DNA of 54,645 nt from a virus, in IMG/VR virus record IMGVR_UViG_3300045988_061800, positions 1 to 54,645 of that record; one strand, written 5' to 3'. Below are positions 6,056-50,963 of the stretch, one piece after another; positions within the stretch are counted from its first letter, which is position 1; every line of letters starts with the position of its first letter. The position numbers were made by a program, and so were the translations under genes. The notes beneath the pieces are model-generated. The model saw only the letters and a program-made list of their open reading frames with translations. It did no database searches and had not been told where the DNA came from.

Positions 6056-6388
6056 ATGATATTTCCATTTGAAAGAGAAGCTGAGCAAGGGGCCCCCATG
6101 CCGGACGGTTTATCTCTTCCAGATCAGCTTGCGTTCCGTTTTTTGTCCAGCATGTATGCAAGTATTAGAGCGGGATCTATAACCAGAGAACGGGCGATTT
6201 CTGATAAGGGGAAAATGACGTATCAATATAATATAGCAAATGAATCCATGAAACAATGGAAGGAACTAGGGCAGCACTGGTCAAACATTATTAAGTATGT
6301 TGAGTTCGCACAAAGTCAATATAGAAAGAATCGTACTTTGGAAAATGCGGATGTACTAAGCAAGGCGTTAGATGGGGTGCTGATATGA
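6056..6388 (+). CDS. Hypothetical protein (110 aa)
   Basis: ORF track. AAGGAG lies 7 nt upstream. Confidence 0.6.
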   Translation: MIFPFEREAEQGAPMPDGLSLPDQLAFRFLSSMYASIRAGSITRERAISDKGKMTYQYNIANESMKQWKELGQHWSNIIKYVEFAQSQYRKNRTLENADVLSKALDGVLI

Positions 6389-6449
6389 TCACCAGAGACC
6401 CCTACGGCATCAGCGGAGCGGTGGGAAGCAGTCAAGGAGGTGCCGAACG

Positions 6450-6503
6450 ATGGACGATAAGACGCGCGCCCTGCTGGGAGACAAAGAGGCGGTGGAGCAA
6501 TGA
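6450..6503 (+). other. 17-codon ORF (MDDKTRALLGDKEAVEQ) duplicating the N-terminus of the Lar-like gene
   Basis: AAGGAGGTG lies 8 nt upstream. Peptide and DNA resemble 7092-7145 (DDIKLALLGNKEAAKR). Confidence 0.3.
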
Positions 6504-7099
6504 AAGTGCTGGTTGCCTGTGAGGAGTCGCAGGAAGTCTGCAAGGCGTTCCGGGCGTTGGGGCATGATGCGTACAGCTGCGACATTGAGCCGTGCAGCGG
6601 GGGGCATCCGGAGTGGCATCTGAGATGTGACGCGCTGGAGTTACTGAAAATACAGTGGGATATGATTCTGGCGTTTCCGCCCTGTACATACTTGTCAAAC
6701 GCTGGTGCTAAGCACCTGTTTCGCGGCGGCATCCTCAATCAGGAGCGATACCAGAAAGGTTTGGAGGCAAAGGAGTTTTTTCTGAAATTTCTGGACGCGG
6801 ACTGCCCGAAAATCTGTGTTGAAAATCCAGTATCAAGCAGAATTTATGAAATGCCGCCGCACAGCCAGGAGGTGCAGCCCTGGATGTTCGGGCATCCAGT
6901 ACAGAAAAAGACCCGTCTGTGGCTGAAGGGTCTGCCGCCATTGGAACCGACAGACATCGTAGACCCGGAGTGCGGCTGCCATGAGGCCGGTACGTGGTTT
7001 ATGCGAGGCGGGAAAGACCGTCAGAAAAACAGAGCCAAGACGTTTCCTGGATTGGCAAAGGCGATGGCCGAACAATGGGGAGGTATCTGTGGTGGATGA
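6500..7099 (+). CDS. Short C5-cytosine-methyltransferase-like protein (199 aa, no obvious motif I or target-recognition domain)
   Basis: AFPPCTYLSNAG resembles motif IV (PPCQxFSxAG) and VENP resembles motif VI (ENV). The N-terminus VLVACEESQ lacks the FxGxGG SAM loop. Confidence 0.5.
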   Translation: MKVLVACEESQEVCKAFRALGHDAYSCDIEPCSGGHPEWHLRCDALELLKIQWDMILAFPPCTYLSNAGAKHLFRGGILNQERYQKGLEAKEFFLKFLDADCPKICVENPVSSRIYEMPPHSQEVQPWMFGHPVQKKTRLWLKGLPPLEPTDIVDPECGCHEAGTWFMRGGKDRQKNRAKTFPGLAKAMAEQWGGICGG

Positions 7100-8780: not shown

Positions 8781-8922
8781 TATTCTTACAATTATAGCCG
8801 CTGTGGAGTGGATGGCGCTTGGCCTGCTTGTCCTGTGGAAGCTCAAGGGGTGGAATCGAAAGATGGAAGAGTTATACGAAGACATGAAGAAACAGTGGGA
8901 GGCCGAGCATGAGACTAGTTGA
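8773..8922 (+). CDS. Small membrane protein (49 aa, one TM segment)
   Basis: ATG 8773 is preceded by GGAGGGAGCAGG. Hydrophobic IIAAVEWMALGLLVLW. Confidence 0.5.
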   Translation: MADILTIIAAVEWMALGLLVLWKLKGWNRKMEELYEDMKKQWEAEHETS

Positions 8923-9688
8923 TGCGGATAATGCACGAGAGTGCTTTGGTGGTGATGGGGTGACTGGAGCCGTCATGAAGCGTATGTTTGATAGCCTACC
9001 CACCATCGACGCTGTGCCTGTGGTCAGGAGGCCGGTTCCGGGATATGAGGGGTATTATGAAGTGGACAATCTTGGAAGAGTGTTTAGCGTTGACAGAATT
9101 ATTCATGTAAATGACAATGGGAGAATTTATGATAAGCCAGTACATGGGGCAGTATTAAAACAAACAAATCATTCCAGAGGGTATAAAACAGTCCCGTTAA
9201 CGAAAAACGGGAAGACAAAGCAGGAATATGTCCACCGTATTGTTGCCTCTGCATTTATTCCAAACCCGGACAATCTTCCGGCAGTAAACCACAAAGACGA
9301 AGACAAAACAAATAATTTTGTTGAAAATTTGGAATGGTGTACAGTTGCATATAACAACAATTATGGGGGAAAAACCAAGAAGCAAGCGGAAAAAATTAGA
9401 GGAATATCGCATAACGAAGCCCACCGGGAAAAAATATCAAGTTCGTTAAAACAGTATTATAAGACACATATTTCTGCAAGTGCTGGTAGGGAAAGCGAGA
9501 AAAGAAAGCCAATTTTTCAGTTTGATTTAGATGGGAATTTTATAAGAGAATATTCGTCTGTTCATGAAGCATCTAGCGGAATTATTTCACGGAGAAGAAA
9601 TATAACAGCAGTCTGTAACGGGAAAAGAAAAAGTGCCTATGGCTATATTTGGCGTTGGGGCCAGCGAAAGGAGGCCGACCATGGCTAA
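8909..9688 (+). CDS. NUMOD4/HNH_3-type homing endonuclease
   Basis: GYEGYYEVDNLGRVFS is the NUMOD4 motif. HRIVASAFIPNP...NHKDEDKTNNFVENLEW is the HNH_3 pattern. Paralogue at 23368..23916. Confidence 0.75.
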   Translation: MRLVDADNARECFGGDGVTGAVMKRMFDSLPTIDAVPVVRRPVPGYEGYYEVDNLGRVFSVDRIIHVNDNGRIYDKPVHGAVLKQTNHSRGYKTVPLTKNGKTKQEYVHRIVASAFIPNPDNLPAVNHKDEDKTNNFVENLEWCTVAYNNNYGGKTKKQAEKIRGISHNEAHREKISSSLKQYYKTHISASAGRESEKRKPIFQFDLDGNFIREYSSVHEASSGIISRRRNITAVCNGKRKSAYGYIWRWGQRKEADHG

Positions 9689-35705: not shown

Positions 35706-36329
35706 ATGCCATACGAGTATCAAGTAGAAATTGGCGGAATAATGTACGGAATGGATAGCATTAAAAGCGCAAATATAAAGCAGCCGTTATTCGAGTATTT
35801 TGGAGCGGGGAATGCAATGCCTGCTGAGTTCCACATTACATTTATTCCTAAAGAGGAACCTCCCAGAATGGCAAAAATTGTACCATTCTGTAGAGAAGAA
35901 GGAGAAAAAGATTGGCATAAGCTAGGTATATTTTTTGTTGATGTAAGGAGTGAAGATAGACAGTGGAAAAATCTCATTGCCTATGACTCCATGCTGAAAA
36001 CCGAACAAACTTACTTGATTAGTGAAGATGTGGGTGAATGGCCAAGGGGGATGAAAGCGCTTGTTGCGGATATAGCAAGCCGTATAGATGTAGAAGTTGA
36101 TAGTAGAACAGTTATCAATGAAAGTTATGTGGTTGAATATCCAAACGATTATACAATGCGAGAAATTTTATGCCATATAGCAGCGGCCCATGCAGGGAAT
36201 TGGATTATTACGGCGGACGGGAAATTGTTGCTGGTTCCGCTTTTTACTGCAATGCCTCCAGAGACATATTACTTAATAGAAGACAGCGGAAGTGCCATAG
36301 TGTTTGGAGAGGATAGAATTTTGGTATGA
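35706..36329 (+). CDS. Tail/baseplate component
   Basis: Position. GAGGAG lies upstream. Confidence 0.55.
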   Translation: MPYEYQVEIGGIMYGMDSIKSANIKQPLFEYFGAGNAMPAEFHITFIPKEEPPRMAKIVPFCREEGEKDWHKLGIFFVDVRSEDRQWKNLIAYDSMLKTEQTYLISEDVGEWPRGMKALVADIASRIDVEVDSRTVINESYVVEYPNDYTMREILCHIAAAHAGNWIITADGKLLLVPLFTAMPPETYYLIEDSGSAIVFGEDRILV

Positions 36330-37534
36330 ATAACAAGTATTATGTAGGCCAAAAAGCATCTTCTTTTTTAAAATATGAAAAAACTCCTCCAGTTAGTAAA
36401 ATCCGGCTGTTTTGGGATGATGAAAATGCATTCGAAGCTGGAGATGATACAGGATACACAATAGAATTGTTTTGCCCATCAGCTACGCAGAAGATGGCAG
36501 ATAATATTTTGAATGCAGCAAAAGGATTTGTGTATCAAGGATTTTCGGCCCCTGGCTCAAGCCTAGTTCCAGAAGCGGAACTGGGGGATGGAGTAACGGT
36601 TGACGGTTTTTACGGAATGATAGCAAATCGGGATATAGAATTTGGCCCAGGGAATTTATCCGACATCTCTGCTCCAGGGGAAAAGGAAATTAACCATGAA
36701 TATCCTTATTTGAGCTCAGAAAGTAGAGAGCTAAAACGAAAAGTTACACTAGGGACTTCTTACTATGGCACTAAAATTACTCGAAAAAACGGATTAGAAA
36801 TTACCAAAACAGATAATAGCGGTGCAGAGAAAAGCCGGGTTATTTTAAACAGCGATATTTTGGCCTTTTATAATGACGATGGACAGGCAGCACTCTATTT
36901 TGATGCGGCCAGTGGAAGATACATTTTTCGCGGGGACATCAACATGCAAGGGGGATCTATTTATTGGGGAGATTCCTTCCCTTACAAGTCCCAGTTTTCA
37001 ACATCTCCGGATGGACCATGGCATGATAAGCAGCAAGAAGGAGATAAATACAGACGAGATACATATGATGGGGGAAAAACTTGGGAAGAGCCTTACCAAT
37101 TTGTCGGAACAGACGGACGAGACGGTATAGACGGTTCGGATGCAAGTGTTACATTCAACAATGTACTTCGAGCATTACAAAGAGCAGAGGCGACACAAAC
37201 AACATTTATTACAGCGGATGAGCTAGGGGCTCCCACCATTTATGGTGCCAAAATTTATGGTGCAGAGATATATGCTGGCGGTGTAGATGATATGGGTGGA
37301 CAAATTATTGGGCTCTTGGACACTGGGATGGTGGTATGGAACGGAGATGGAGAACGAGTATTAACTATTTCTGGAAATGCAGATACTGCGAGCCTTGTCA
37401 CGGGCTATAACATATTACGCTTTAACTGTCCGTATATGTCGGTAGAAGCCACATCATCAGTTTCCTTTCATGGACGATTAGTTTCTTTTGATGACGTAAA
37501 TGAGGTTTCAGGACTTTATCTGAGGTTTTCTTAA
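36326..37534 (+). CDS. Tail tip/baseplate protein (402 aa) with a short collagen-like GTDGRDGIDGSDA stretch
   Basis: ATGA overlap with the upstream gene. Position. Confidence 0.6.
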   Translation: MNNKYYVGQKASSFLKYEKTPPVSKIRLFWDDENAFEAGDDTGYTIELFCPSATQKMADNILNAAKGFVYQGFSAPGSSLVPEAELGDGVTVDGFYGMIANRDIEFGPGNLSDISAPGEKEINHEYPYLSSESRELKRKVTLGTSYYGTKITRKNGLEITKTDNSGAEKSRVILNSDILAFYNDDGQAALYFDAASGRYIFRGDINMQGGSIYWGDSFPYKSQFSTSPDGPWHDKQQEGDKYRRDTYDGGKTWEEPYQFVGTDGRDGIDGSDASVTFNNVLRALQRAEATQTTFITADELGAPTIYGAKIYGAEIYAGGVDDMGGQIIGLLDTGMVVWNGDGERVLTISGNADTASLVTGYNILRFNCPYMSVEATSSVSFHGRLVSFDDVNEVSGLYLRFS

Positions 37535-38682
37535 TGCTTCCTAAAATATATTCAGCGTTTCTCAACTTGACAAATGCATGTAACTTGGCGTGTCGCTATT
37601 GTTTTGTGGAACAGCATCCAGATATGATTTCCCTTCAGGTAGCGAAAGATGCAGCGGATTTTTTGGCCGCCAACGCGGGAGACGGGGTTCCGTCTATCAA
37701 CTTTTTCGGCGGGGAACCACTACTGATGTGGGACGCTATTATAGTCCCGCTGACCGAGTATGTCCGGGATCGGTATCCAGCATATAACCTTTCTATGACA
37801 AGCAATGGAACTCTGCTGAACCAGGAGCGGGCGGAGTATATGAGGAAGAAAGGAATAGGGCTCTTGCTTTCCATGGACGGAGACAGACGGACTCAGGAGC
37901 GCAATCGACCGCTTCAGGATGGCGGCTCCAGTTTCGACATTCTGGGGAAAAAGCTTCCTTTAATTTTGAAATACTTTCCTGATGTGATGTTCCGCTCTAC
38001 GGTAACACCGGAGACCGCAGTTGACTTGTTTCACGATATGATATTTGCAGAACAAGCTGGTTTCCGCACATTTTTTACTATGCCGGATAGTTTTGCAAAT
38101 TGGGACGGCACTGAGCCACTGGAGGAGGAACTTCGGCGCTATTCAGAGCATTATGTCGAGTGCTTAGAAAATGGATGGGAACCAATCTACTTCACACAGA
38201 TTGAAAAGTTTTTCCCCAAAATACTCTTGCACAACCAGGCGATCCAAGAGGGGGCAAACCGCGCCTATACCTCATGTATGGCCTGCGGCAAGTGCGGGCT
38301 GGGTTCTGGGCGCTATGCGGGGATTAACCTGAATGGAGATATCCTAGCTTGTCAGGAGTTCTTTTCACGAGGAGATAATCCATTCGTGATTGGAAATATC
38401 TATACTGGGGTGGTAGATGAGACGCGGAGACGACTTATGCAGAAATACGATAGCGCACAGGTTGAAGGGGATGGGTGCGATGAATGCCCCCTAAACCGCA
38501 TCTGTGATGGAGGGTGCGTGGCCAACAACTATATTCGATCGGGGAGTTTCCACCATATGCCCCCCATCTGCTGTCGGTGGAACCGTCTGCTATTCCGAGA
38601 GGCAATCTATCTAATGGAGCGGCTGGGCAAGGCAAGAAACAAACGCTTTTTAGAGAGGTGGCATATCTATGTTGCCAGATGA
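37534..38682 (+). CDS. Radical SAM enzyme with C-terminal SPASM domain (anSME/QhpD-like architecture, no N-terminal RRE)
   Basis: C16-x3-C20-x2-C23 (ACNLACRYC), GGEPLL, and SPASM pattern C-x13-G-x4-C ... C-x2-C-x5-C-x3-C (CDECPLNRICDGGC). TAATG overlap with the upstream tail gene. Confidence 0.85.
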   Translation: MLPKIYSAFLNLTNACNLACRYCFVEQHPDMISLQVAKDAADFLAANAGDGVPSINFFGGEPLLMWDAIIVPLTEYVRDRYPAYNLSMTSNGTLLNQERAEYMRKKGIGLLLSMDGDRRTQERNRPLQDGGSSFDILGKKLPLILKYFPDVMFRSTVTPETAVDLFHDMIFAEQAGFRTFFTMPDSFANWDGTEPLEEELRRYSEHYVECLENGWEPIYFTQIEKFFPKILLHNQAIQEGANRAYTSCMACGKCGLGSGRYAGINLNGDILACQEFFSRGDNPFVIGNIYTGVVDETRRRLMQKYDSAQVEGDGCDECPLNRICDGGCVANNYIRSGSFHHMPPICCRWNRLLFREAIYLMERLGKARNKRFLERWHIYVAR

Positions 38683-39601
38683 GCTGATCGAAGTACCGGA
38701 ATACCTGAAGGGGGAACTTACCGGTGCAAACGTCATGCCCATGTGCGACTTCTGTACGGAGATTGCCTGTGAGACAGATGGAATGGCCTGTGGTGAGACT
38801 TGCAGCCAAGGATGCCACGGGCAATGTACTGTGGTACAGTGCGGACAGTGTAGCGGCTGCCTGGGTGGATGCCAGATATGCGAATCATCCTGCCAAAATT
38901 CCTGTCAGTCCTGTCAGTCATCCTGCGAATCGGCAGCGCAAAACCCTACCAGCTATGGTTCCATCACGGTGGGTGAAGTTACCAGCCATACTATTGAAGT
39001 AACGCTGAAAGCCATTTCAAAAGCAACATCTTATGTGATCGCCTATCGGCCAGACAGCACGACCACTGCCCGAAATGTGGAAACTACGTCGCGAAATTAC
39101 ACGCTAACAAGCCTCGAGCCTAACCAGAGGTATGTAATTAACTACTATGGCAAGAACAGCTACGGAACCGGCCCTTATATGCCTTCCCCGGTCTATGCCA
39201 CCACAAGGCCAGAGATTGTAATTGAACCGTGGTCATGGACATCATCCAATGGGGCAGCGACGGACACACAGACCCGTAACGCCTACCAAATTTTACAGGG
39301 TAACCGGGCAGCGGATGACTTCCATCACAATGTATGGAACGACTTCATAGACAAGATTGTGGAGATGCGAGAGGCATACGGATTGTTTTGGACGACGGAC
39401 AGTGGGCGCTTTCCCTCCGCCTCCGGGTGCAAGGTGTCCGCCGGGGACACACTGACCGCCGAGATTTACAACGCGGCCAAGACCAATATAGGTTCCATAC
39501 AATCTACCGGGATACAGGATGTAGATCCGGGGGACGAGATAACCGGATACCACGTTCTTCACATCTCGGATGTTCTGAATGATATCATTGGAGGTCTGTA
39601 A
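38669..39601 (+). CDS. Cys-rich (16 Cys in residues 26-86) plus FN3-like domain protein; candidate rSAM substrate and virion component
   Basis: Overlaps the rSAM stop by 14 nt, with GAGAGGTGG RBS. CDFCTEIACETDGMACGETCSQGCHGQCTVVQCGQCSGCLGGCQICESSCQNSCQSCQSSC, then ITVGEVTSHTIEVTLKA...YVIAYRP...YTLTSLEPNQRYVINYYGKN (FN3-like). Confidence 0.8.
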   Translation: MLPDELIEVPEYLKGELTGANVMPMCDFCTEIACETDGMACGETCSQGCHGQCTVVQCGQCSGCLGGCQICESSCQNSCQSCQSSCESAAQNPTSYGSITVGEVTSHTIEVTLKAISKATSYVIAYRPDSTTTARNVETTSRNYTLTSLEPNQRYVINYYGKNSYGTGPYMPSPVYATTRPEIVIEPWSWTSSNGAATDTQTRNAYQILQGNRAADDFHHNVWNDFIDKIVEMREAYGLFWTTDSGRFPSASGCKVSAGDTLTAEIYNAAKTNIGSIQSTGIQDVDPGDEITGYHVLHISDVLNDIIGGL

Positions 39602-39762
39602 TGGATAGTCAAAAAATTATTCAAATGGCGGTAGCAATTAGAGAAGCAGCCTCTAGGATCACAGTATCTGGGCCAAACAATTGGACACAGTTGCTTGGTA
39701 TTATCCACACAGCGGAATCTATAGTTACAGAGGCGGGGAAGGAGGGAGAACATGGCGGATAA
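39601..39762 (+). CDS. Putative 53-aa protein
   Basis: TAATG overlap with the upstream gene. Under 60 aa, so absent from the track. Confidence 0.45.
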   Translation: MDSQKIIQMAVAIREAASRITVSGPNNWTQLLGIIHTAESIVTEAGKEGEHGG

Positions 39763-41827
39763 ACGGATTGGGGAATTGCCTCTTATCGAAGACCTTGATG
39801 ATGAGTCTTTTTTTGTGGCTGAACAACAAGGTGCAGCAGGACATATTACCGGCGCACAGATAAAGGGATTCGCCCGGAAGTCCGTGGAGGATATTGCAAA
39901 CGCTTCCCAGAAATCGGCTGAAGCGGCGGCGAAGAGTGCGTCTGCAGCCCAGGAGAGCGCTACTCAGGCGGAGGAAGCGCAGGAAGCAGCAGAGAGTGCC
40001 AAGAGTGGGGCAGAGGTTGCACAAAAAGCGGCGGAAACGGCACAAGGCGCCGCCGCGGACGCGCAGGCCGGGGCGGAGAGCGCCAAGACGGCAGCGGAGG
40101 CAGCGGCGGACGTTGCAGCGAAAGACGCCGCCGAAGGTGTGCGGGAAGAGCTCTCCGTCTATGTGGAGCAGACTAAGGCAAACGCCCAGGCGGCAGCAGA
40201 TTCGGCTTCGGAGGCCGCAGCGTCCCAAGAGGCCGCAGCAAAAAGCGCCCAGGGGGCGGCAGGCAGTGCAACTGCGGCGGCGCAGAACGCGGTGGATGCG
40301 GCGGATGCCAGAACGGCTGCCGAAGCGGCACAGGGCAAGGCGGAGGCCGCCCAGGTGGTTGCGGAAGCAGCCAAGAGCGGGGCGGAGACAGCGGCGGGCA
40401 CGGCCACTACAAAGGCCGAAGAAGCAAGCGCGAGCGCCGAGACCGCCAAGCAGTACAGCGGAAAACCGCCGAAGCCGCAGAATGGAACCTGGTGGGTATG
40501 GAACGCAGAGACCCAGGCGTATACCGATACCGGGATTAAGTCTGTTCTCTCCATTGTGAAATCCTATCCCTCTGTGGAGGCTATGGAGGCGGACAAGCTC
40601 AATATGCATGAGGGCGACCTAGTTATCATCGCCTCCACTGTAGATGACCCAGATAACTCCAAGCTCTATGTGCATGATGGCGTTGGCTGGGTGTATCTCT
40701 CCGATCTTTCCGGCGTGGAGGGCGTGGGGATTGCGGGCATCTCTCAGACTGACGGCAACCATGCGCCGGGCACCACGGACACCTACACAATTGAGCTGAC
40801 CGATGGGAGCTCATACGAGTTCACTGTCTACAATGGTGCGGATGGCGACGGAAGCGGAGACATGCAGTCTTCTACATATGACCCACAGGGCAAGGCGCAA
40901 GACATCTTCGGATATGCGGACAATGCAGCAAAAGGCAAGCAAGACAAGCTGAAAGGTACCGCTGGCCAGGTGGTAGGCTTTGACTCCGAAGGCAACGCAA
41001 TCCCCCAGGCGGCCCCCAGCGGATTGCCGGATGGCGGAACTGTGGGGCAGTTGCTGGAAAAAACGGAGGACGGGGCAGAGTGGGCAGACAAGCCTGTGAT
41101 GTATGTAAACATAACGCCACCGGCTGGAGATTCCCCGTTCGGAACGGCTGACCACACGATTGCTGAAATAACGCAAGCAGTCTTGAACGGGGTAACCGTG
41201 CTTTCAAAAATATCGGCAGGAACCGATACTAAAGTAATTCCACTTTCGACTGTAACAGACAGTGTGGCTTCCTTTTCGTCTACGTCTGTAGACTACGGCG
41301 GGTCTGTTATCGCCAATATTGTACCCCAAGAACAGTCCGAAGTGGTTATTATAGCGGAAGATCAATTTAGAGCAAGCCAGATTCTATACGATAAAGGAAC
41401 GAGTGGCCTTGATTCAGATGATGTGCAAGGCGCAATCAAAGAACTGGCTAAGAACAAGCAGGACTCCGCAGATGCTGTAACTGTTTCCGGCGGCGGCACG
41501 ATGCAGATGGGGGAGAGCCTGGGCAAAGGGCCGTACACCATTGAGGTGACAGAAGACGGAGAGGGCGGCGACCTCTCCGCCGAATATGTGGGCTACAGCA
41601 ACACGGGCAGCGGCCTGGAGGCCACCAATGTGCAAGAGGCTATCGACGAGCTGGCGGGGAAGGGCGGAGGCGAGTATCTGCCTTTGACTGGCGGGACTAT
41701 GACGGGGCCTCTCACTTTAAGCGGGCTGCCGACCAGCGAAAACCACGCCGCCAACAAGCAGTATGTGGATGGCTTGGTTGGTGACATCAATGCCATGCTG
41801 GATGCCATCAACGGGGAGGTGGTGTGA
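39752..41827 (+). CDS. Tail fibre with long Ala-rich coiled-coil repeats
   Basis: AAEAAQ/AKSA-type repeats over residues 45-240. C-terminal LPLTGGTMTGPL...AANKQYVD fibre motif. Confidence 0.8.
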   Translation: MADKRIGELPLIEDLDDESFFVAEQQGAAGHITGAQIKGFARKSVEDIANASQKSAEAAAKSASAAQESATQAEEAQEAAESAKSGAEVAQKAAETAQGAAADAQAGAESAKTAAEAAADVAAKDAAEGVREELSVYVEQTKANAQAAADSASEAAASQEAAAKSAQGAAGSATAAAQNAVDAADARTAAEAAQGKAEAAQVVAEAAKSGAETAAGTATTKAEEASASAETAKQYSGKPPKPQNGTWWVWNAETQAYTDTGIKSVLSIVKSYPSVEAMEADKLNMHEGDLVIIASTVDDPDNSKLYVHDGVGWVYLSDLSGVEGVGIAGISQTDGNHAPGTTDTYTIELTDGSSYEFTVYNGADGDGSGDMQSSTYDPQGKAQDIFGYADNAAKGKQDKLKGTAGQVVGFDSEGNAIPQAAPSGLPDGGTVGQLLEKTEDGAEWADKPVMYVNITPPAGDSPFGTADHTIAEITQAVLNGVTVLSKISAGTDTKVIPLSTVTDSVASFSSTSVDYGGSVIANIVPQEQSEVVIIAEDQFRASQILYDKGTSGLDSDDVQGAIKELAKNKQDSADAVTVSGGGTMQMGESLGKGPYTIEVTEDGEGGDLSAEYVGYSNTGSGLEATNVQEAIDELAGKGGGEYLPLTGGTMTGPLTLSGLPTSENHAANKQYVDGLVGDINAMLDAINGEVV

Positions 41828-49871: not shown

Positions 49872-49932
49872 TTTTTGAACTTTTTGTTCGTTGTTCTATT
49901 TGCACATATTTAAAAAGAAAGTTACAAATACT
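49872..49932 (+). repeat. attP-region direct repeat, copy 2 (abuts the integrase stop)
   Basis: Identical 13-mer and 17-mer blocks in the same order as copy 1. Confidence 0.75.
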
Positions 49933-50963
49933 TAGGAAACCTTCTGGATCTCTTTAGCCAAAAACGAAACATCTACGTGCGTATAGTGCTCGGTAACATC
50001 TCCATCGGAATGCCCTAAGATACGCTTTATAGCGACTTCGTCCACCCCGGCCATCCTCATCCGAGACGCGGCGGTATGTCTGCACCAATGAGGGGTTGCG
50101 GAAGGAAGTCCTAATTCTTCCATAACTTTAGAGAATAGCGGGCGGTATTTGTATGCGGGGATTGCATTCCCGTCATCATCACAGATAATAGTTTTACCGC
50201 CCCTGGACAGCCACTTGGTCAGATATGGCATGATTTTAGGATGCACCGGGACAATGCGATTTTTCCCGGCCTGGGTTTTTAGACCTCCTTGCAAATAATT
50301 CGCCTCCGAATGATACGAGAATCTGGTAAGCCCCAAAAACTCGGACACCCGGAATCCAGTATAACATAGCATTAGTACGGTATCAGCCCAAGGGAATCCA
50401 GAGGACGCCAGGTTCTCCAATTTACGCATTGTGATATCATCAAAAGCACCCTTTTCGTGCTTTGCTTCAACTCCTGGAAGTTCCACAAAAGCGGAATAGT
50501 CTTTATACACGATATCGCGCTCTGTTGCGTGCTTAAAAAGTGCTTTCATAAGCATTTTGTCATTGCTAATACTAGATTTCGATAATCCGTTTGCCTCGTC
50601 TTGGTCAATAATAGATTGTAGGTCGTCAATCGTAACCTTGCACATATCCTTTTTTTCTAGCACACAGAGGCGCGCCCAAGAAGCCTTATAGCTGGCGATA
50701 GAGGCAGCTCCTGCCTTTGCATACTTTTTGGCAGACCACTGATTGTATACGTCTCCCCAGGTAACGGCGAGTGACTTTGCCGGGATATTAGATGCCAAAT
50801 ATTTGTCAAGGGCCTCCTGTGCTTCTTTGGCAGTTCTGTGGTAGGATAGATACTTTTGCTTCCACAGTCCGGGCCGCTCCAAATACGACACCCTGACGGC
50901 GTATCGGTTTCTGCGGTTCGGGCCAAGATTTACAATACTTCCAGTTCCGTTCGCTCTTCTCAT
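49932..50963 (-). CDS. int: Tyrosine integrase
   Basis: HWCRHTAASRMRMAGVDEVAIKRILGHSDGDVTEHYTHV (R, HxxR, Y catalytic pattern). 343 aa. Confidence 0.9.
   Translation of the reverse strand: MRRANGTGSIVNLGPNRRNRYAVRVSYLERPGLWKQKYLSYHRTAKEAQEALDKYLASNIPAKSLAVTWGDVYNQWSAKKYAKAGAASIASYKASWARLCVLEKKDMCKVTIDDLQSIIDQDEANGLSKSSISNDKMLMKALFKHATERDIVYKDYSAFVELPGVEAKHEKGAFDDITMRKLENLASSGFPWADTVLMLCYTGFRVSEFLGLTRFSYHSEANYLQGGLKTQAGKNRIVPVHPKIMPYLTKWLSRGGKTIICDDDGNAIPAYKYRPLFSKVMEELGLPSATPHWCRHTAASRMRMAGVDEVAIKRILGHSDGDVTEHYTHVDVSFLAKEIQKVS

Follow-up and report, generated by a model that had tools for sequence, protein, structure and literature searches.

A phage radical SAM/SPASM enzyme encoded next to a cysteine-rich tail-region protein: a candidate system for thioether stapling

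In the tail region of a virus genome, two overlapping genes encode a radical S-adenosylmethionine (SAM)/SPASM enzyme and a protein of 310 amino acids with a cysteine-rich N-terminal extension. We think it rather probable that the two are enzyme and substrate: the phage enzyme would staple the extension with thioether bonds, and the extension would be kept on the distal-tail protein. The DNA is IMG/VR virus record IMGVR_UViG_3300045988_061800, positions 1 to 54,645; this whole stretch of 54,645 nucleotides is called the window below. Enzyme and extension are gained and lost together, and therefore the phage would be stapling a protein of its own tail region. [quoted passage not shown] Phages appear to have adopted such chemistry for their own tail-region proteins, with the pairing found across hundreds of metagenomic relatives. 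If this is true, a radical SAM enzyme would covalently modify a protein of the virus particle, for which we found no published precedent, and the enzymes would make up a new clade of thioether synthases that modify proteins and are guided by a leader motif.

The enzyme and its cysteine-rich neighbor

37534..38682, + strand: radical SAM/SPASM enzyme gene (382 amino acids), the proposed maturase, with no N-terminal RiPP recognition element (RRE); assigned from Pfam, NCBIfam, PHROG and the alignment with CteB
37579..37602, + strand: CX3CX2C cluster motif (C16/C20/C23), found by regular expression in the translation and invariant in 20 homologues
37708..37725, + strand: GGEPLL SAM-binding motif, residues 59 to 64, with G59, G60, E61 and P62 invariant in 20 homologues
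38275..38574, + strand: SPASM region, holding the auxiliary-cluster cysteines C248, C251, C254, C273, C315, C318, C324, C328, C346 and C347
38669..38682, + strand: 14-nucleotide overlap of the enzyme gene end and the substrate gene start
38669..39601, + strand: candidate substrate gene (310 amino acids), coding for a leader, then the Cys-rich core, the FN3 domain and the four-helix domain
38669..38743, + strand: leader-like N-terminal segment, residues 1 to 25, acidic and free of Cys
38687..38707, + strand: conserved leader motif IEVPEYL (consensus hydrophobic-x-[ILV]-P-x-x-L)
38744..38926, + strand: Cys-rich core, 16 Cys in 61 residues (26 to 86) with CxxC/CxxxC spacing, ending ...CESSCQNSCQSCQSSCES
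38960..39202, + strand: FN3 domain, about residues 98 to 178 (Pfam fn3 at 98 to 170, 30.6 bits, cutoff 25)
39221..39598, + strand: C-terminal four-helix domain of about 130 amino acids, PWSWTSSNG...VWND..DK...GD.ITGY...LN, the conserved core of the family

An earlier note on this DNA had read a radical SAM cluster motif, GGEPLL and a complete SPASM pattern in the first gene, and the translation bears this out. The SPASM part comprises C254-x13-G-x4-C273 and C315-x2-C-x5-C-x3-C328 (CDECPLNRICDGGC) and, together with C346/C347, gives the full 7-Cys pattern that marks the subfamily, CX9-15GX4C ... CX2CX5CX3C ... C. Both domains score above their cutoffs, Radical_SAM in Pfam (PF04055; E = 2.8e-13, 50.8 bits against a gathering cutoff of 29.5) and SPASM in NCBIfam (TIGR04085; 48.8 bits against 27), and the catalytic cysteines and glycines are invariant among the 20 homologues, which share 46 to 77% identity. 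The enzyme also matches PHROG 1802 (E = 2.6e-39), which groups phage members under the label "radical SAM domain-containing protein." Among solved structures, the SCIFF maturase CteB matches best (5WGG; E = 1.8e-32, CteB residues 99 to 435), and in this alignment C248, C254, C273, C315, C318, C324, C328 and C347 stand opposite cysteines of CteB.

Among the curated enzyme families of NCBIfam, PapB (NF047865) is the best match (180.8 bits, cutoff 340), followed by nif11-rSAM (138 bits, cutoff 518.7), the SCIFF maturase (TIGR03974; 130.4 bits, cutoff 425), QhpD (TIGR03906; 116.2 bits, cutoff 453) and CcpM (100 bits, cutoff 500). These top five are all Cys-directed thioether enzymes, and the best match is thus not a nucleoside or cofactor family; a best match of that kind would, by the earlier note, have spoken against its reading. 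Lower scores come from the CXXX-repeat maturase model (TIGR04115/TIGR04117 system; 79.2 bits, cutoff 350) and the anSME model (TIGR03942; 73.9 bits, cutoff 349), and sactipeptide, cyclophane and anSME models match at 50 to 80 bits. In each of the four enzyme clades that were tested, PapB is the top-scoring model (170 to 205 bits). Judged by sequence, the enzyme most resembles thioether-forming maturases; since it reaches the cutoff of no named family, it is an unclassified relative of these families and a member of none.

The N-terminal RRE is absent: the radical SAM motif starts at residue 16, and the alignments begin at position 100 of the SCIFF maturase model and at residue 99 of CteB. The architecture had been called anSME/QhpD-like; the RRE-less build holds and is shared with anSME, the PapB model and the CXXX-repeat maturase, but the likeness to QhpD does not, since the QhpD model has about 95 additional N-terminal positions. 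The enzyme family comprises 692 proteins at E <= 1e-20 among word-sharing candidates, and the best 120 of the 692 are almost all 350 to 420 amino acids long. One radical SAM homologue of 531 amino acids (P0094) carries Hint/intein Pfam domains, which suggests a gene interrupted by an intein.

The enzyme gene overlaps the upstream gene for a 402-amino-acid tail protein by 1 nucleotide (TAATG), and its end overlaps the substrate gene by 14 nucleotides; both overlaps, and in the second protein the succession of a 25-residue N terminus, 16 Cys within 61 residues, an FN3 domain and a C-terminal domain of about 130 residues, agree with the earlier description. The start of the substrate gene is preceded by a Shine-Dalgarno-like GAGAGGTGG, the 14-nucleotide overlap is consistent with translational coupling, and an abutting or overlapping layout was found in all relatives that carry the pair. 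On one contig of 942 nucleotides, the C terminus of the enzyme is joined in frame to the N terminus of the substrate (P0010, 277 amino acids), probably by a frameshift or an assembly error at the 14-nucleotide overlap.

In the core of the window protein, 44% of the cysteines are followed by Gln or Glu, Asp makes up 3% of the residues, and Arg does not occur. Over 48 substrates with 5 to 54 Cys each, CxxC (221) and CxxxC (321) account for 542 of 771 intervals, small residues precede the cysteines, and the following residue is Gln (284) or Glu (196) in 59% of about 815 cases. In some long cores the cysteines are spaced 3-4-4, which might be compatible with a helix or a coiled coil. In a relative of 721 amino acids (locus L086, 2141 to 2579), the 39-Cys core is a tandem repeat of 57 nucleotides (19 amino acids) in 7.6 copies with 82% identity, and hence cores expand by tandem duplication; the repeat in the window is one of 9 nucleotides only, in 2.2 copies (38900 to 38919). 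Among the Cys-rich relatives, 35 of 56 have the leader motif; among the Cys-less ones, 0 of 15 have it. The likeness of this segment to SCIFF peptides, pointed out in the earlier note, holds for composition but not for the precursor models of NCBIfam (SCIFF, Cxxx-repeat and others), none of which matched at E <= 0.1 with the full protein or at E <= 10 with residues 1 to 97; the Cxxx-repeat target model gave a marginal match (E = 0.94) to a small open reading frame (ORF) of locus L118 only. In the profile searches that had been proposed for the two genes, Radical_SAM and SPASM scored above their cutoffs, the SCIFF maturase scored below its own, and the SCIFF peptide gave no match.

The body of the protein is predicted with more confidence than its core. 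The FN3 domain and the four-helix domain are modeled by AF2 with a predicted local distance difference test score (pLDDT) above 90, and a Foldseek query with the whole model returned generic FN3 matches (E about 1e-7). The four-helix domain modeled alone reaches a pLDDT of 95.8 but has no fold match in the PDB (Foldseek, best E = 3.1), and therefore its fold gave no functional clue; it is possibly an attachment module. A search of 5.8 billion proteins yielded 52 relatives of the substrate, all metagenomic. About two-thirds of them have the N-terminal leader and a Cys-rich core of very variable length, and the others start at the FN3 domain. Without Cys or a radical SAM gene, the four-helix domain also occurs in other phages, at the N terminus of proteins of about 760 to 800 amino acids and at the C terminus of proteins of about 600, and this predicted domain is a mobile module. 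In PHROG, the 310-amino-acid protein matches only family 37329 (of unknown function) and, weakly, an FN3 domain of major tail proteins; no PHROG function attaches to the long proteins bearing the four-helix domain, and a search of cultured phages with that domain alone gave only insignificant matches to Bacillus phages (E = 0.2).

Distribution of the pair among viruses

From viral, metagenome and genome collections, 72 loci seeded via the C-terminal domain were scored for a Cys-rich segment and a radical SAM gene; a first alignment (A1) was too diverse, and the metagenome and genome scans were done with a tighter one (A2). After clustering at about 90% identity, and with at least 1.3 kb of upstream sequence required, the non-redundant clusters fell into 7 Cys-rich with and 0 Cys-rich without a radical SAM gene, and 0 Cys-less with and 26 Cys-less without it. 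In exact-sequence look-ups, the Cys-rich proteins P0024, P0046, P0050 and P0045 all abut a radical SAM gene (4/4), and the Cys-less proteins P0038 and P0036 have none. Cys-rich homologues lacking an adjacent radical SAM gene, named in the earlier note as a sign against the pairing, were not found in these sets, and the Cys-less homologues never have the gene.

Syntenic tails differ by exactly these two elements. Locus L121 reads 1151aa - rSAM - Cys-rich 401aa - 70 - 128 - Gp80 - 318, and locus L126 reads Dit - 1168aa - Cys-less 235aa - 92 - 131 - Gp80 - 310, with no radical SAM gene. Locus L069 has the order of the window, from the tape measure protein gene (TMP) on (TMP - g128 - g207 - g402 - protein - fibre), minus the enzyme and the extension. 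Hence, enzyme and extension are gained or lost as one unit in a fixed distal-tail slot, and comparative genomics supports an enzyme-substrate pair.

A scan of IMG/VR viral contigs seeded with the enzyme returned 48 loci, of which about 32 are distinct, assessable and not the window itself. A Cys-rich gene adjoins the enzyme in about 31 of these about 32 loci, mostly directly downstream (-24 to +90 nucleotides), and the pairing is far wider than the window locus. The core-bearing proteins have 194 to 790 amino acids, and several match the "Hoc-like" immunoglobulin (Ig)/FN3 PHROG. The position of the core varies: it is internal in L091, C-terminal in L115 and C-terminal on an upstream protein of 959 amino acids in L108. 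In phages that recode TAG (Phass-1, L109, L115 and L116), reading TAG as Gln gives a protein of about 200 amino acids in which Cys clusters flank a helical domain of the same type. In Phass-1 (L073, OQ749652), an unannotated gap directly after the radical SAM gene (about 6138 to 6660) codes for such a Cys-cluster protein, and the recoded TAG codons restore Cys-Gln pairs.

Enzyme clades follow the core type (Cys-Gln/Glu against Cys-x1-3-Asp) in a neighbor-joining tree of 30 enzymes. The enzymes of Asp-type cores (n = 3), in which every Cys belongs to a C-x1-3-D unit and Cys-Gln/Glu does not occur, form a clade of their own; the helical domain of one such substrate (L036) is 65% identical to that of the window, yet its enzyme stands in the separate clade. 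A second clade holds enzymes whose substrates have no leader, and a third those whose substrates begin with MALKEDDIKDLG. Loci L111 and L112 are the only assessable enzyme-seeded loci without a Cys-rich neighbor; their radical SAM protein is 37% identical to that of the window, the downstream gene begins with MSYIVGGTTYPDPEIAC, and they may mark a different substrate type. Free-standing Cys-rich ORFs of 49 to 89 amino acids lie 5' of the radical SAM gene in L100 (3811 to 4214) and L118 (10 to 766) and are like classical RiPP precursors; in L100, they occur alongside a large Cys-rich protein.

Proposed reaction and competing explanations

In our model, the RRE-less enzyme and the 310-amino-acid protein would be made together by translational coupling in an anaerobic host, and the enzyme would act on the N-terminal extension, probably docking on the hydrophobic-x-[ILV]-P-x-x-L motif of the leader. 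Hydrogen abstraction would most likely take place at a side-chain carbon next to a carbonyl, as in PapB, CteB and QhpD, and the likely acceptor would be the Gln or Glu after the Cys (C-gamma), or Asp (C-beta) in the sister clade. In known ranthipeptides, with Asn, Thr or Asp as acceptors, an amide, hydroxyl or acid group adjoins the linked carbon (PMC8326336). The acceptor carbon would then be joined to a Cys sulfur held on an auxiliary Fe-S cluster, and the repeats would lead to several intramolecular thioether bridges. In CteB, the substrate Cys is bound at the open iron of the auxiliary cluster. The stapled module would not be cleaved off but would stay on the FN3 and four-helix body, in the fixed slot between tail-tip genes and tail fibers. 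A distal-tail protein would thereby gain a rigid appendage that withstands reduction and proteases, whose role might be this rigidity or resistance, or adhesion. The helical domain is probably what fixes the protein to the tail tip, since it is N-terminal on long proteins without a PHROG match whose genes directly follow homologues of the 402-amino-acid gene. As for the wider claim, we see the chances as about even that many phages of anaerobes, TAG-recoded gut phages included, bear tandem-grown, RiPP-like Cys-repeat modules of 6 to 54 cysteines on their tail or surface proteins that are cross-linked by dedicated RRE-less radical SAM enzymes.

Several known systems resemble this model in part. 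CteB/ScfB with the SCIFF peptides (ranthipeptides, such as thermocellin) likewise combines a radical SAM domain with a 7-Cys SPASM domain, includes the best structure match, and has an adjacently encoded substrate rich in C-Q-x-x-C-type repeats and anaerobic Clostridia as hosts. However, CteB has an N-terminal RRE, and the SCIFF precursor is a peptide of about 45 amino acids, whereas the substrate in the window would be the N terminus of a folded protein of 310 amino acids in a phage tail module. The PapB/PapA system (freyrasin, with Cys-X3-Asp thioethers) also has repeated Cys-acceptor units, and the CX3D motifs of PapA resemble the sister-clade cores; the window core differs in that it is poor in Asp and the residue immediately following Cys is mostly Gln or Glu. 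PapB joins Cys to the carbon that adjoins the carboxylate of an Asp or Glu located C-terminally at i+1 to i+7, tolerates Glu and variable spacing, and is reported to dock its leader on an RRE (PMC12373016), the element that the window enzyme lacks. QhpD is, like the enzyme proposed here, a SPASM radical SAM protein that cross-links a protein and not a released peptide, namely the QhpC subunit of quinohemoprotein amine dehydrogenase, via Cys-Asp (C-beta) and Cys-Glu (C-gamma) thioethers (PMC8326336). Apart from its longer N terminus, it differs in serving the maturation of a cellular redox enzyme and not a virus, and no QhpC/QhpA-type dehydrogenase subunit was found among the window ORFs scanned. 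The usual label of phage SPASM genes, anSME, stands for an RRE-less enzyme of about 370 amino acids that acts on Cys or Ser of a folded protein; unlike its substrates, the one in the window has no C-x-P/A-x-R, and no sulfatase gene is nearby. The HK97 capsid "chainmail," made of autocatalytic Lys-Asn isopeptide links, is also a post-translational covalent reinforcement of a virion protein, but the model for the window invokes a dedicated radical enzyme and links formed by Cys.

That the pair is real but its chemistry another one, giving sactionine (S-C-alpha) or C-C links, formylglycine or another Cys-centered modification, is unlikely in our judgment. It would accord with the scores below all equivalog cutoffs, with the 50 to 80 bits of the sactipeptide, cyclophane and anSME models and with the different reactions known from SPASM enzymes of similar sequence (PMC8326336), but the five best matches are all thioether enzymes, with the ranthipeptide-type PapB first in four clades, and the enrichment of Gln, Glu and Asp beside Cys suits side-chain acceptors. 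The anSME chemistry was rejected, because a core without Arg cannot hold the C-x-[PA]-x-R motif. Leader and core could instead be a RiPP precursor on an FN3/helical carrier that is modified, cut off and, on lysis, set free as an antimicrobial or signaling peptide of the SCIFF kind. The leader-core layout, the SCIFF-like composition, the free-standing small ORFs in L100 and L118 and the tie of SCIFF peptides to quorum sensing in clostridia (PMC8326336) all fit this. We nevertheless hold it to be quite unlikely: neither a peptidase nor an exporter gene is present in the window, where all ORFs of at least 500 amino acids are assigned to replication, packaging or tail; neither end of the core has a conserved double-glycine-type cleavage site; and cores that are N-terminal, internal or C-terminal in large proteins, with up to 54 Cys, better suit a structural module.

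Dense CxxC/CxxxC arrays also look metal-binding, and the Cys-rich segment might be a metal- or Fe-S-binding or disulfide-bonded domain, with the radical SAM gene there for another purpose or for cluster handling. AF2 gives the core no confident fold (pLDDT < 50 over residues 20 to 35 and 37 to 75), and the only match to PDB sequences (phmmer) is a spurious one, to a Cys-containing stretch of alcohol dehydrogenase (E = 0.5). This explanation strikes us as very unlikely: the strict joint gain and loss, the overlapping genes and the clades that track the core type argue for direct coupling of enzyme and substrate, and for the conserved Gln or Glu at Cys+1, as for the all-Asp variant, no metal role is obvious, but both match known thioether acceptors. 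Annotated phage radical SAM genes often lack a known partner, and the gene could be a passenger (moron) adjacent by chance; the contingency table, the 4/4 look-ups, the about 31 of 32 viral loci and the gene overlap effectively refute this.

Some points weigh against the stapling of a tail protein by the enzyme. As the enzyme is below every curated cutoff, its reaction type is an extrapolation, and we know of no direct precedent for Gln as acceptor, Asn in NxxcA being the nearest. Many Cys-rich substrates have no leader, which bears on recognition by the enzyme. The Fisher test of the contingency table (p = 2.3e-7) ignores shared ancestry, and the neighbor-joining tree has no support values. 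Finally, the 310-amino-acid protein has no match in cultured and GenBank phages (tblastn), PHROGs assigns its family no function, and we infer its incorporation into the virion from gene position alone.

The type of enzyme and the cross-linking of an adjacently encoded Cys-rich substrate are already known. New are the RRE-less, phage-encoded enzyme clade, the substrate as an extension of a tail-region protein and the breadth of the association. A phage radical SAM enzyme paired with a Cys-rich virion protein did not turn up in full-text literature searches, in line with the earlier note, whose author was aware of no such case. If confirmed, the reaction would be a new class of post-translational modification in virion biology and would account for many orphan phage genes labeled "radical SAM" or "sulfatase maturase." It would also provide compact RRE-less enzymes for folded fusion proteins, useful in enzymatic peptide or protein stapling, and natural matched phages with and without the module with which to probe particle stability or gut adsorption.

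Genomic setting of the pair

35706..37534, + strand: two tail-tip genes (207 and 402 amino acids) directly 5' of the pair; PHROG 32308 and 6616, tail protein
39601..41827, + strand: 53-amino-acid ORF and tail-fiber-like gene (691 amino acids) directly 3' of the pair; PHROG tail matches, order kept in relatives
49932-50963, - strand: tyrosine integrase gene

The pair lies between tape-measure and tail-tip genes on its 5' side and tail-fiber-like genes on its 3' side, as assigned by PHROG; the tail-fiber genes that the earlier note had placed directly downstream are thus confirmed by PHROG tail matches. Homologues of the tail-tip genes of the window directly precede Cys-less relatives in other phages. 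Across relatives the gene keeps its place, 3' of the Dit and tail-tip genes and 5' of the fibers. The ORFs of 207 (35706-36329) and 402 amino acids (36326-37534) match positions 104-223 and 389-584 of PHROG 32308, which has 709 amino acids, and the window thus seems to carry a tail-tip gene that is divided between a pair of overlapping ORFs. On the other side, the ORF of 53 amino acids (39601-39762) shares base 39601 with the stop of the 310-amino-acid gene and is 54 to 64% conserved in several relatives; scans of Pfam and other libraries gave it no family match. PqqD-type RREs have about 90 amino acids. This ORF was considered as an RRE supplied in trans and set aside, as it has no Pfam match and is shorter than these.

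The window encodes a large terminase, portal, major head protein, major tail protein, tape measure, endolysin and integrase, and judging by its gene content it is a temperate phage of the siphovirus type, the tyrosine integrase gene being the sign of a temperate life style. It is a gut prophage, and its host probably belongs to the Clostridia. The closest terminase of a cultured phage is that of Clostridium phage Maintenon (39%), near-identical copies are found on human-gut viral contigs, and more distant relatives of the pair occur in genome bins of Oscillospiraceae, Lawsonibacter and Ruminiclostridium. In the replication region, an HNH/NUMOD homing-endonuclease-like gene is located at 8909-9688.

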